Origin: a virus
DNA length: 64,000 nt
Direction: 5' to 3' (one strand)
UHGV virus genome: UHGV-0036853
Shown here: piece by piece, positions 1 through 6,000 of the stretch
How positions within the stretch are numbered: position 1 is the stretch's first letter
Layout of the letters: every line of letters begins with the position of its first letter
Position numbers: made by a program

Positions 1-3000
1 TCAAAGAAGAAGTGTTCGGAATCACGCATTACCGGCGTAGCACCAGAAACTACCGATTTCGGCTCGATCAGTTCAGTAGGGCTGTATGTCGCGCCGCAGA
101 CTTCACAGTTATCGCCGTATTGATCCGGCGCTTTACATTTCGGGCATGTGCCTTTCACAAAACGGTCCGGCAGGAACATGCCTTTTTCCGGGTCGTACAG
201 CTGAGAGATGGTGCGATTTTTAATAAAACCGTTCTCTTTCAGGCGAGTATAGATAAGCTCAGACAACTGACGGTTCTCTTCGCTGTGCGTCGAGTGATAG
301 TTGTCATAGCTGATGTTAAAGCCTGCGAAATCAGTCTGGTGTTCCTGACTCATTTCGCCAATCATCTGCTCCGGTGTGATACCAAGCTGCTGTGCTTTCA
401 GCATGATCGGCGTACCGTGGGCATCGTCGGCACAGATGAAATTAACCTCGTGGCCGCGCATTCGCTGGTAACGAACCCAGACATCAGCCTGGATGTGCTC
501 CAGCATATGGCCGAGGTGGATTGAGCCGTTAGCGTACGGCAGCGCGCACGTCACCAGAATTTTCTTCGCGACTTGGGTCATAGTAGGCATTACTTCTTTG
601 TAGTGAAAAGGGGCTTGATAGTAACAAAATGGCCTTATGTCTGCCATGTGATAACAGCATTTCTCATAAATGATTAAATGTCGTAGCTGGAGTACACTAC
701 AAGGCGACAATTGCGCAAATTAAAATAAAGGAGACGGGATGAGCGAGTCCAAATCGCCGGATGCCCTGAGAGCAATGGTAGCCGGTACGCTGGCTAATTT
801 TCAGCACCCAACCCTGAAACACAACCTGACTACGCTTAAAGCGTTACACCATGTTGCGTTGATGGATGACACACTGCATGTCGAACTAATCATGCCTTTC
901 GTGTGGAATAAGCCTTTTGAAGACCTGAAAGAGCAATGTAGTGGTGATCTGCTCCGTATCACTGGCGCAAAGGCTATTGACTGGAAGCTGTCGTACAACA
1001 TTGCCACGCTTAAGCGCGTCAAAAACCAACCAGGCATTAATGGCGTTAAGAATATTATCGCCGTAAGCTCAGGCAAGGGCGGTGTAGGCAAATCGTCCAC
1101 AGCAGTAAACTTGGCACTGGCGTTGGCTGCTGAAGGTGCGAAAGTTGGTATTTTGGATGCCGATATCTACGGTCCATCAATTCCAACCATGCTGGGCGCG
1201 GAAAACCAACGTCCAACCTCACCGGACGGTACTCACATGGCACCTATCATGTCTCATGGCCTGGCAACCAACTCTATTGGTTATCTGGTCACCGACGACA
1301 ATGCAATGGTGTGGCGTGGACCGATGGCCAGCAAGGCGCTGATGCAGATGTTGCAGGAAACACTGTGGCCTGATCTGGACTATCTCGTTCTCGATATGCC
1401 GCCGGGCACTGGTGATATTCAATTGACGCTGGCGCAGAACATTCCTGTAACTGGTGCGGTTGTGGTAACTACGCCGCAGGACATCGCGTTGATCGATGCG
1501 AAAAAAGGCATTGTGATGTTCGAAAAAGTCGAAGTGCCGGTACTGGGTATCGTCGAAAACATGAGTGTGCATATTTGCAGTAACTGCGGTCATCACGAGC
1601 CAATTTTTGGCACCGGTGGCGCACAGAAGCTGGCCGAGAAATACAACACGCAGTTGTTAGGCCAAATGCCACTTCATATCTCTCTTCGTGAAGATCTGGA
1701 TAACGGAACACCAACCGTTATTAGTCGTCCAGATAGCGAATTTACGGCTATTTATCGTGACCTCGCAGATCGCGTTGCTGCCCAAATGTATTGGCAAGGT
1801 GAAGTAATACCTGGCGAAATCGCATTCCGCGCAGTGTGATAAAAAGGTGGTGCAATGCACCACCTAAACAGTTCTCCTACATCACAGGACAATCATCAAA
1901 CTCGCCACTTCTTGCGTCGTTGATAATGTGAGTGATCACACCAAACACGGCATTGCTGCCCGTGCATCCATCATCATCCTTTGGCAATGCTTCCTTCTTA
2001 CCAGTTCTTAAATCCTCCAGATGCTGACGTGGATACTTCCGGTATCTTTTTACGCGATATTCCCCATCCAGAGCACATACAAGAAGAGATCCATCAACAG
2101 GAGTGAGTGAGGAATCGACCACCAGCAATGCACCCTGCAATATTCCCTCACGATGATGGCTATCAGCTGCCCTCAAGAAGTAGGTCGCTGAAGGATGTCT
2201 AATTATCTGCTGATCAAGAGAAATACGGCTCTCAGCATAATCCGCCGCAGGAGAAGGGAAGCCCATAGCGTTTTCACCTCAAAATACTGTTTATTCATAC
2301 AGTATACATTAAAGAAGCACCTTTGGTGCAAACGCGTTATGTACATCAACCACCGCTGATGATTTTGTGCGCTTTGCTACTATTCATCACCAACGGATCA
2401 GCGTAACCTCGTTGCCAATCAGTTAATAAGGAATTAGCTATGCCTGCCCGCATTCCTCTCGATCCTGTATTGCCCAAAAATTTTGACAGCACTCCTAACG
2501 AGAAACGCTCCAAAGCCCAGTTGGACGCCTGGTGGGACCATCCCTATGGAGTTACAGAACCTGACGGGAAAATTGTTGTTTATTGTCTGAATGGTGGCGC
2601 GTGGGACCGCCCATCCGTGCTTGGTTTAGTAGATAACTATGATGAAGCCTGTGAACTTGCCGAAAGACAGCAGGCAAGCTGGGTAAAAACACGGTCTGAA
2701 CCGACATTCATGTTTTCAAAAGAACCACCATTTATACTGGCGAGGATGCCGCAGCGACCGGATCATCAACAAGAAATTGTTGCTGAATTTTCCTCAAGGG
2801 ATGAGATGAATCTCTTCTCATTAATGCAGGAAGAAAGAGAGCACGTCGAGGTGTCTCCAACTCTCGATCATAACCGGATGAACCTGGCCCAACTCGCCCG
2901 GTACAGCAAAGAATTGGAGATGTCTATTGCCCGGCTTGAAAACGAAAAAGCCGCTATCCAAGCCCAGCATGAAGTTATTCTGGACCGGATTAGAGAAATG

Positions 3001-6000
3001 CAAAACAATAATAGGGGATTTTGAATGGCTAAGATCGAGTACCATCGCGATCGGGGTAATTACCTGGAAATATACGATCATGAATCTCTTAACGATATCA
3101 ACGATGCGTTATATGAATACTGTGAAAAAACGAGCATCACAGATGCACCTGATGCATTTGTCGAGCTACCGGTATACCTCCGCGACATCTATGCAATACG
3201 AACGCCGCCCATACCGGTAATTCACATTGGCTATGTCCGCCTGTCTCTCGAAGAAGATGCAGGTCGTTACATCGTGCGCCACTATACATTGGACAGAAAA
3301 GAGCTTCCCAATGAATGGAACGCGAGTAATTACTATAACGGTGAATATGGCTTAAAATCCGCTAATAATTTACGCTCATAATCTATACAGCTATGTATAA
3401 CAACAAGCCTATGAGCTGCCAACAACGTGATTTTCTCAAATAAGAAAACGTAGAAAACAAATTGTTTAAGGCCACTAGTTGTGGCCTTAATGGAGAGGGG
3501 ATGCTTATTGGCTATGGCTAAAAATCAAATTAGACACTTCATGTGGTTGTAGCTCGTCAAGATCCGGTGCCACAAAACCTTTTCCGAAAGACTTCACAAG
3601 TGATTCGCCAGCCGCATCATTGTCACCTATTACACGAAAGTCATACGGCAGCATTGCCAGTTGACGACGTAATCCTGCTGAGAAAGTCGAACCTAACAGC
3701 GCCCACGAATTTCCGCCCGCGTTGTGCACTGCTGCACTTTTAAAAATCGACTCAGTTATCCATATCGGTCCATCTTTTAAAGGAAGATAGGTTCCCCATA
3801 GTAGCTGTCTGCCGTGCGCTCGTGTGAAATACCGGGCCATCTTCGGATTGCTGTGCTGCTTAGGAGCGCCTGGTCTGTATGTCTGATACCCGGCCAACAT
3901 CCCATCAAACCTGTATAGAGGGAATGTAACAACTCCTTCGCTTTCATCGATCCACTGTCTATATGGGTGTATATCATGGCGGTAGTTACGAGTCAGCAAA
4001 TGAGCTTCCAGCTTTCCAAATTTGGTCATAACTTCGCATCCCTCATAACACTTCCCATTTATCACCATATTTCTCCATAGCTCTTAGCCAGTAAACATGG
4101 CCACTAGGCATAGTGATGTGAGGCTCGCCAAACTCTTCTCCATGCACATCAAAGATGTCCCCAACAGAGAATTGGGGGATTTCTGTGCCGTTTTCACCTA
4201 TATGCGTAATTCGTATACGTTTCGGTTGAGATTCGCCCCCTTTAAGCGAGTTGTTCACGGCTCTTGCAATCTTCTCCCGCAATTGCTGCGTTCCGTGATA
4301 CGTAACCGCAATATCCCGCAACTCGTTCACCAGTTCTCGAATTTGGTGATCTTTAAGCTCATTATTTGAGTGATTGGTAACAACTCTGGTTAATTCACCC
4401 TTGTCTTTTGCTCTTACGTATGCAGCTCTTGTGCATTCGACCCATGTATTACCGCCTACATTAACTTCGTAGATTAGGCTGGACTTATCTGTCAATTCGG
4501 AACAAATACGGGCCGTGGTCTGGCAACTAGAGCATTCGCAGTTATCGCGGAAACCGTGATCTGCCGGTCGAGAAAGAGGTTTAACTTTTTCATCCAACTT
4601 CATCACAGCATCGTGATAAGCGTTCCAGCCGTCATCTTTACCAAGTTGATAAATCTCTGAAGGCTCCATGTAGTCTATATCGCAACCATCTTCATCTGAT
4701 CTATCTGGTCGTTTCCCTGGTAATCGCTCATAAAAACGATTTCTGTCTCGACGTTCGGCTCTCAGTGCTAACGCAAGAAGTTGCTCAAGCGAGGTATTCG
4801 CACCAGCAATAATTTCATTGAGAATATCTTCTGTGAGATCTTTCGCTACCGTGCTCATTTATCTCTCTCAGTATGTTGCGATGGCGTAAATTTGACGACA
4901 TCAAATATTTTGGATGGCATCAACTTTATCCGCGAGCTTAGTTCGGCTCTTCTCTGTAATGCGGTTAATAATGTTTTCGTTCTGACGCCTTCGTGTATCC
5001 TCATCCCTGGCACAAGAACTACGTCGCAGGGAAGATGCTCAGGTGACAAATCATTTTGGGCATCACCAATAAGTTGTGTAATCTCTCTTTCAAGCCGACC
5101 GCCTAACTCCGTTTTAGTGCAATGTTCTGACCAATCGCCAGCCTCAAGAAGCGCGAGAATGTTTAAAATATCGTCCACAAGAGCAGTCGTGTCGCCGATG
5201 ACAGGAAAGGGATCGGCATAAAGCGCGACAATATCCCCAATCGTTTTTTGTACCGCATCCTCAATATCTAAATATGCCGGAGTCGAAACAATTGCCGGAT
5301 CGGCCAAATCATCTTTCATTACAAACGCAGATGGCTTTTGTTCAGACAAGGCCAGTAACACATTCGCCATACGATGCGCGATGTGCTTTTTCCCGTACTC
5401 CTTTGTTGCCTGTGTTAGTTCTTCTTTTGTTATTTCAATCATCGTAGGGCATCCTCCACGCCCACCAATCTGTGCTGCTCTAGGTAGTTCATTGCCTTAT
5501 CTGGTAAGTCACAGTCCGGCTTCGCTTTCTTCAATTGGCTGACTAACCGTTTAACCCACATTGCTAACTCTGTAACTAGGTTGTCGCATTCTGGTGTGTT
5601 ATTAGCATTCTTCTGAAGCATAGCAGCACGACAGGCGTTCCAGCCTCTCACCTCTGCAATAGCTGCAACCGCATCAACCGCATATCTGCTAAGAGGGTTC
5701 GGCATTGGTTTTTCTTCCGGTACTACTGGAACGGGTGGAGCGGCGTAGACCTCAATAATTCCATTATCAATAGGCCATTCTCCATCCTTGAGGTAGTCAC
5801 TTGTACCGTCAACTTGCTGTTCTGCAATGTGGAATGCACCTATTGGTTTTGCCTCAAGCGAGGACAGTGCAATTCGTGCCAGTTTTAGATCTCGTTCAAC
5901 CATCTCAAGAACAACTTTGCAGTCCGCACCTTCTTTGCTAACACGTCCTTTCAAGTTTTTCAGATAACTAACGCTTTCGCGTGCATGGGAGATTAACTGT

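Follow-up and report, generated by a model that had tools for sequence, protein, structure and literature searches.

Here we show that the first 3.5 kb of a 64,000-nt stretch of the viral genome UHGV-0036853 (the window), in which the housekeeping genes metG and apbC (mrp) abut a humD-like gene and other genes of mobile elements, mark no integration site; the window comes from a single phage-plasmid. With a probability of about 0.9, window 1-3500 is the accessory-gene slot of a circular phage-plasmid of ~110 kb belonging to the SSU5 supergroup (pECOH89/PhiR41_1 type) of Escherichia and Shigella, and the metG-apbC pair is its long-resident, intact cargo.

Distribution of the apbC-humD junction

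The initial annotation had left two explanations for the meeting of housekeeping and element genes, namely an element integrated beside apbC or a phage-plasmid that had captured a chromosomal segment. A 351-nt probe across the apbC-humD junction was searched in 5,426 complete E. coli genomes and was found intact in 207 of them (~4%), at 234 places, 229 on plasmids and five on chromosomes. The one chromosomal junction of the five that was inspected lies in a lambdoid prophage with a 64-nt remnant of apbC. The junction is also present in ~200 PLSDB plasmids of 106-128 kb (197 non-mobilizable) from E. coli, Shigella, E. albertii, and E. fergusonii, and in four deposited phage genomes. Moreover, the first 6 kb of the window match circular E. 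coli plasmids of ~107-115 kb at 97-98% identity, as well as the phage-deposited records PhiR41_1, CMS-2020a, and Cyrano.

The chromosome offers a different picture. The gene order in K-12 is yehE-mrp-metG-yehF, the gene after mrp/apbC being yehE, and across all 5,426 E. coli genomes the copy on the chromosome matches the window at only 80-90% identity. Left of metG, each relative studied has phage-plasmid backbone genes, and neither host chromosome nor attachment (att) repeats were found past metG/apbC. Because the junction occurs on circular plasmids and phages, yehE follows apbC in K-12, backbone genes lie left of metG, and the window is collinear with PhiR41_1 (see below), we conclude that the element is not integrated beside apbC. 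A prophage or island inserted in the chromosome there, with metG-apbC being the host's own genes, would agree with the two genes being full equivalogs of their chromosomal counterparts and keeping the chromosomal divergent arrangement; against the low identity of the chromosomal copies, the K-12 gene order, the 229 plasmid versus five chromosomal junctions, and the lack of att-like repeats, it is exceedingly improbable. The capture of a chromosomal segment by a phage-plasmid is thus the alternative that stood, and the idea that humD and the genes at 2440-3381 might be native chromosomal neighbours of apbC is contradicted by the same gene order and junction counts. We also observed that the metG-apbC locus of a record labelled Enterobacter hormaechei strain B56 (L007, CP170191.1) is identical, whichever comparison was made, to that of E. 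coli K-12; the record is probably a mislabelled E. coli.

Backbone

From position 1 to 61875, the window aligns collinearly with the circular phage genome PhiR41_1 in 14 blocks of 91-99% identity, and it is likewise collinear with plasmid pAVS0968-B (NZ_CP124394.1) except for one inversion. The genes on the left flank of the metG-apbC cassette match SSU5 at 68% and Salmonella plasmids of 106.7 kb (pHCM2-size) at ~82%, and the same left-flank region is shared by pECOH89, which is SSU5-like (PMC3999498). Relatives encode DnaE, a DnaB-like helicase, a primase, a ligase, ribonucleotide reductase, thymidylate synthase, ParA, a tape-measure protein, and lambda-like tail-tip proteins. The parts of the window that match L087/PhiR41_1 include ParA, the DnaB-like helicase, primase, ligase, DnaE, an integrase/recombinase, and tail-associated genes; by homology to annotated relatives, the window carries both virion genes and genes for plasmid maintenance and replication, with the main tail/head block lying mostly beyond it. 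There are also four tRNA genes (Ser-TGA, Thr-TGT, Tyr-GTA, and Asn-GTT) at 48923-49924. Judged by these homologies, the window is that of a ~110-kb phage-plasmid of the SSU5/pECOH89 group and not of P1.

The case for a P1-type phage-plasmid, in which metG-apbC would have replaced the phd-doc addiction module after humD, comes from the genes to the right of the cassette: humD, lxr, and upf93.6 are 90-92% identical to those of P1/P7, and phd-doc of P1/P7 starts right after the humD stop codon, that is, at the same border. However, P1/P7 homology is confined to window 1878-3717; elsewhere the window matches a siphovirus of SSU5 type that has DnaE, DnaB-like helicase, ligase, and lambda-like tail genes of its own. 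The core of a P1-like (Punavirus) backbone was not found, as pacAB, c1, lpa, and phd-doc adjoin humD in no relative examined, and a P1-type origin is accordingly very improbable.

Some structural variation was observed along the SSU5-type backbone. In pAVS0968-B, the segment equivalent to window 38367-63000 is in the opposite orientation to that of window 1-18500, with breakpoints at 18500/18501 and 38366/38367 and with ISEc52 and ISEc23 nearby; the window shares the arrangement of PhiR41_1 and not this inversion. A segment of 5.5 kb (window 47335-52807), which is not in PhiR41_1, adjoins the four tRNA genes and includes an AT-rich region with a GC content of 0.35-0.38. Dips in GC content occur at 17001-18000, 37001-38000, and 47001-49000.

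Cassette and module borders

The layout of metG, apbC, and a HumD-like gene described in the initial annotation agrees with NCBIfam equivalogs and with the list of open reading frames (ORFs) (Table 1), and Pfam domains concur for all three proteins. In seven of seven relatives examined, full-length metG is an intact ORF of 2034 nt; the copy of the closest complete relative, pAVS0968-B (locus L001), scores 1019.6 bits against the cut-off of 587 for the equivalog NF001100. Homology to the metG/mrp region of E. coli K-12 covers window 1-1835 and, across comparisons, chromosomal homology ends at 1829-1846, while P1/P7 homology begins at 1878. The abrupt change from chromosome-type to element-type sequence noticed after apbC is real and falls inside a 37-nt spacer which is kept in eight of eight copies examined. 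The distance of 38 bp first reported between apbC and humD reflected a truly tight spacing, measured from stop codon to stop codon. The operon proposed at 2440-3381 corresponds to two abutting ORFs on the plus strand, neither of which matched a family in Pfam or NCBIfam scans. Direct repeats had not been seen by eye, and a computed search for direct or inverted repeats of at least 8 nt around the cassette (att sites or target-site duplications) was also empty; 7-mers common to both flanks occur at chance level (582 of 2000 shuffles).

The left border of the cassette lies ~1.5 kb beyond the window edge and was studied in relatives. In pAVS0968-B (window position 1 corresponds to L001 8001), chromosome-type homology extends over L001 6547-9835 and is bounded exactly by the stop codons of metG and apbC, and the whole cassette spans L001 6468-9876, composed of a hairpin after metG, metG, the 157-nt intergenic region, apbC, and the 37-nt spacer. 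The hairpin after metG is terminator-like (-20.1 kcal/mol, z = -3.9), and the one within the spacer (-19.5 kcal/mol, z = -3.5) is likely the intrinsic terminator that ends humD transcription and likely also blocks read-through coming from apbC. The spacer hairpin exists in two alleles among the eight copies, GGTGGTGC/GCACCACC and GGCGGTGC/GCACCGCC, which differ by a compensatory change of a stem pair. Its assignment to the humD module was considered and rejected; P1, P7, and p.CT29-P1 each differ after the humD stop codon.

To the left, the cassette is bordered by a backbone promoter/operator unit with two copies of the palindrome GAAAACAANTTGTTTTC around an AT-rich core. This palindrome, which corresponds to the repeat families D1/D2 in L001, is found at 10 sites in the window (0.74 expected), most of them between genes. 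In the relatives it forms pairs that enclose an AT-rich core and precede operons transcribed leftward. It is probably an operator bound by a repressor of the element itself, or else a promoter element. Module borders were observed to adjoin the palindrome as a tendency.

To the right, the humD module extends from ~1877/1885 to 2317/2330 and includes the LexA box, whose position is that of the annotated LexA binding site in the P1 and P7 records. This module is found by itself in D6, vB_EcoM-813R1, p.CT29-P1, and PhiR41_1; homology stops at 2330 in PhiR41_1 and at ~2317-2318 in the other three. The lxr-upf93.6 module (2331-3449, 1.1 kb) is optional: the window, pAVS0968-B, P7, and SJ46 have it, and PhiR41_1 and the S. 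sonnei plasmid L091 do not. It is ~91-92% identical to P7, SJ46, and some P1 isolates, which shows that modules move between the unrelated P1 and SSU5 groups of phage-plasmids. Collinearity with PhiR41_1 returns at 3450, with an operator palindrome and a terminator hairpin. The first backbone gene beyond them gave no match in the Pfam and NCBIfam scans, its toprim name being that of RefSeq annotation only.

Different cargo occupies the cassette's slot in the relatives, where it lies between the DUF5983 gene on one side and humD or the backbone on the other. In p.CT29-P1 (L085 11855-16134), it contains insertion sequence (IS) 1, a helix-turn-helix regulator, IS3, and a DUF4145 gene, with humD and a type I restriction-modification system coming next. 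In pCUVET18-789.1 (L086 11350-15300), it contains ydfZ, another chromosome-type gene, and a gene of the LprI family. Among the plasmids of S. sonnei, E. coli, and E. albertii that were compared, metG, apbC, and humD keep exactly the same spacing, and both outer flanks vary. Separately, the lambdoid prophage in the chromosome of E. coli SJC33 (NZ_CP080255.1, 1466938-1467632; L096 8797-9491) has humD, the same spacer, and the last 64 nt of a plasmid-type apbC; by this arrangement, the prophage evidently acquired its humD module from a metG-apbC phage-plasmid, along with a scrap of apbC.

Table 1. Features at the left end of the window and palindrome sites along it
Feature	Position	Strand	Remarks
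metG, 5' part (methionine--tRNA ligase)	1..581	-	Start-codon complement at 579-581; gene exits the left window edge
metG-apbC divergent intergenic region, 157 nt	582..738	.	Presumed native bidirectional promoters
apbC (mrp), Fe-S cluster carrier, 366 amino acids	739..1839	+	NF008669, 759.3 bits (cut-off 348)
Spacer, 37 nt; right border of captured cassette	1840..1876	.	Neither chromosome nor P1/P7 homology
9-bp GC-rich hairpin, then TTTTTAT on the minus strand	1845..1865	-	Terminator-like call
humD (UmuD'-like, S24 peptidase family)	1877..2266	-	NF051876, 217.7 bits (cut-off 120)
LexA box TACTGTTTATTCATACAGTA	2285..2304	.	Between humD and lxr-like gene; read directly
Small hairpin GCACCAAAGGTGC	2317..2329	-	Right border of humD module
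lxr-like gene (P1 Lxr/P7 Upf94.2 homologue)	2440..3024	+	
P7 upf93.6 homologue	3025..3381	+	Abuts the lxr-like ORF
Backbone regulatory unit	3453..3490	-	Operator-like palindrome 3453-3469 overlapping terminator hairpin 3466-3490
First backbone gene	3505..4068	-	Toprim-domain protein by RefSeq annotation of relatives; annotated start equivalent to window 4029
Palindrome GAAAACAANTTGTTTTC, 10 sites	3453-3469, 8684-8700, 11592-11608, 12306-12322, 13035-13051, 23493-23509, 31741-31757, 45174-45190, 56850-56866, 58880-58896		

Origin and evolution of metG-apbC

The two genes of the cassette have had different histories. At the DNA level, apbC shares ~82% identity with any Escherichia apbC and sits on a long branch next to Escherichia in the tree, whereas metG is ~94% identical to Escherichia alleles and branches within the genus. 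The ApbC protein lacks three N-terminal codons of the chromosomal version; it is 94.5% identical to that of E. coli in amino acids, and synonymous sites are saturated, the proportion of synonymous differences (pS) in a codon alignment being 0.67, compared with 0.54 for apbC of E. coli against Citrobacter. Either the capture is old, or the element evolves fast, or both, and the pair is not a recent pick-up from the present host.

A recent accident, whether a fresh acquisition from the current host or a chimera of chromosome and plasmid reads in assembly, would be in line with repeated housekeeping genes being a classic source of mis-joins and with the tracts of metG that are identical to chromosomal alleles. 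Yet the same junction and 37-nt spacer recur in over 200 genomes that were closed independently and come from several continents and three species, apbC is far from E. coli, and the copies have diverged from one another, with synonymous divergence (dS) of up to 0.3. Such an accident can be regarded as practically negligible, and we return to a long-resident cargo.

There is also a second lineage of the cassette. A search of 5.8 billion proteins retrieved an ApbC of 366 amino acids (lineage P0074) that is 81% identical in protein to that of the window, and its contigs (L097-L100, for example L098 5387-11308) are of SSU5 type and labelled E. coli. On the left side they have the same DUF5983 gene and backbone genes as the relatives of the window; on the right side, a BOF-family gene, hok, a cytochrome c peroxidase gene, and a cytochrome b562 gene stand instead of humD. 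The apbC of this lineage has the same three-codon N-terminal deletion and groups with that of the window in the tree, and its metG is 96.9% identical to K-12 metG. The tree placement, together with the deletion and the left flank common to both lineages, would point to one capture event from a donor branching beside Escherichia. The second lineage fits such an old event, after which apbC would have diverged and metG been homogenised by its hosts.

The plasmid metG copies are patchworks. Each has different tracts that are 99-100% identical to particular chromosomal alleles, amid a background of ~94% identity, and the identical runs measure 126-344 nt. The S. sonnei plasmid metG shares a run of 344 nt with K-12-type metG, for which the expected probability at 6% divergence is of the order of 1e-7; that of pMTY18780 shares 257 nt with E. 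ruysiae, and that of pAVS0968-B shares 197 nt with E. whittamii. The pattern itself is plain in the alignments, and it would be the signature of repeated gene conversion from host chromosomes. As for flow from plasmid to chromosome, no sign of it was found: a plasmid-specific 300-nt metG segment never exceeded 94.6% identity on 5,256 E. coli chromosomes. We would give roughly even odds to the fuller account, in which an ancient cassette in at least two lineages has its metG rewritten in patches by host chromosomes, apparently one-way, while apbC has become isolated at saturated synonymous divergence.

Selection and possible function

Both genes are under strong purifying selection. Eight phage-plasmid copies of apbC differ from one another by at most 44 synonymous and at most three non-synonymous changes (ratio of non-synonymous to synonymous rates, dN/dS, 0-0.04; dS up to 0.19), and seven copies of metG by at most 119 synonymous and 12 non-synonymous changes (dN/dS 0.003-0.05; dS up to 0.32). 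Every metG and apbC ORF compared is intact. The intergenic region shows 0-1 substitutions across the window and six relative copies, though the flanking genes reach a dS of 0.2-0.3; its layout is of the Citrobacter/Salmonella type and not the shortened E. coli type. Given the low dN/dS, the intact ORFs, and the near-invariant intergenic region, metG and apbC are maintained by selection on the element.

It could be argued that the cassette is a neutral hitch-hiker with no function for phage or host, in view of the fact that no function is readable from the sequence, that the slot has unrelated cargo in relatives, and that the plasmid methionyl-tRNA synthetase (MetRS) is ~99% identical in protein to the host enzyme. 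Set against 6-119 synonymous versus 0-12 non-synonymous pairwise differences, the intact ORFs and nearly invariant intergenic region, the retention of both genes by the second lineage despite 19% divergence of ApbC, and a phenotype reported in the literature as summarised in PMC12452169, this is very unlikely. Because the plasmid and host MetRS are so similar, an effect of dosage or regulation would be likelier than a new enzyme. We assume that metG and apbC would be expressed from their own promoters, which would give the lysogen a second MetRS and a second ApbC.

Several observations weigh against our interpretation. The circularity, extrachromosomal state, and ~100-115 kb size ascribed to the window's own replicon are those of its relatives, the window being a 64-kb slice. 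As regards a moron-like unit with a promoter and terminators of its own, terminator-like hairpins lie after metG and in the apbC-humD spacer and the intergenic region is conserved, but a strict sigma-70 scan of the latter (582-738) found no consensus promoter. One genome per GTDB species was scanned with ApbC and then compared at the DNA level, and no donor species emerged, the best species match being 85% over window 1-1835; a search of a collection of 5.8 billion proteins did not resolve the donor either, clustering at 90% having merged plasmid and chromosomal ApbC. The direction and frequency of gene conversion rest on seven copies compared with 10 chromosomal alleles. Finally, the statement that S. 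sonnei metG expression gives rise to a subpopulation predisposed to third-generation cephalosporin resistance comes from a second-hand summary (PMC12452169).

Comparison with known systems

The carriage of metG by a phage-plasmid is already known. It was described in Shigella sonnei for pWPMR2-type elements in a preprint by Tam et al. (2024; medRxiv 10.1101/2024.10.27.24316207), as summarised in PMC12452169, where, according to the same summary, phage-plasmid-borne metG is tied to antimicrobial survival and to a drug-surviving subpopulation. In a further preprint, pWPMR2 is placed in clade K of the SSU5 supergroup, occurring mainly in S. sonnei and also in E. coli lineages (bioRxiv 10.1101/2025.09.12.675607). 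The window shares with these elements an extra metG on an SSU5-supergroup phage-plasmid of Shigella/E. coli, a likeness drawn indirectly, through S. sonnei SSU5-type plasmids and literature summaries. The S. sonnei plasmids of 108-109 kb in PLSDB also carry metG-apbC-humD, at 98.2-98.3% identity over window 560-1876, although the S. sonnei plasmid L091 is without the lxr-upf93.6 module that the window has. The 'highly variable copies of metG' mentioned in the summary (PMC12452169) fit the dS of up to 0.32 found here. In the summaries of the pWPMR2-type work as far as they go, there is no mention of apbC, module borders, or the patchwork. A literature search for P1-like or SSU5 phages with metG or methionyl-tRNA synthetase found nothing direct. 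Our additions are the borders of the modules, the terminator with its compensatory change, a backbone of SSU5 type and not P1 type, the measured intensity of purifying selection, the patchwork of metG, and the further cassette lineage; they are small and do not amount to a new kind of system.

With the pECOH89/SSU5/pHCM2 family, the window's element has in common, going by its relatives, a circular genome of ~103-112 kb, siphovirus tail genes, its own replication and nucleotide-metabolism genes, and tRNA genes (PMC3999498). SSU5 and the Salmonella plasmids gave no match in the apbC searches and are therefore without the cassette, which appears confined to the Escherichia/Shigella branch. The likeness to P1 and P7 is limited to humD with its LexA box, lxr, and upf93.6 (P7), humD itself being 90-91% identical, and to the border at the humD stop codon; the genes that come next in P1/P7 are phd-doc, pdcAB, lpa, and pacAB, in contrast to apbC, metG, and a backbone unrelated to P1 in the window. 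Like phage morons, the cassette looks like a self-contained, host-derived unit with terminator-like hairpins, set between backbone transcription units in a slot of variable cargo. Unlike them, it is a divergent pair of housekeeping genes including a full-length aminoacyl-tRNA synthetase, and it is old, with two diverged lineages.

Proposed assembly of the slot, and significance

It is possible to outline how the slot may have been assembled. The ancestor of the lineage would have taken up, on one occasion, a 3.4-kb piece of an enterobacterial chromosome comprising divergent metG and apbC with the promoter region that they share and, behind either gene, a terminator hairpin. As the comparisons show, this cassette lies between the left backbone promoter/operator unit beyond the window and the humD stop codon. 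The humD module (1877-2330) and the lxr-upf93.6 module (2331-3449) are further exchangeable units, common to P1, P7, D6, and a lambdoid prophage. Since the borders lie at hairpins and stop codons and no att or target-site repeats were found, we infer that assembly would have proceeded by illegitimate or short-homology recombination in a cargo hot spot and not by site-specific integration. Thereafter, the chromosomal metG of the host would repeatedly overwrite the metG of the cassette in patches, so that metG stays Escherichia-like while apbC drifts beyond the reach of homologous recombination.

A copy of an essential aminoacyl-tRNA synthetase gene is unusual for a temperate phage, and this example occurs in ~4% of the complete E. 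coli genomes searched. Its correct annotation as plasmid-borne matters for surveillance, single-nucleotide polymorphism calling, and genome-wide association studies, because the literature, in the summary cited above, ties metG cargo to antimicrobial survival in epidemic S. sonnei, and reads from a second metG can pass for chromosomal variants. If the one-way rewriting of metG by host chromosomes is true, it would account for the 'highly variable' plasmid metG alleles of the epidemiological work, and the phage-plasmid would be a natural system in which to watch gene conversion of an essential gene from the chromosome to a mobile element.

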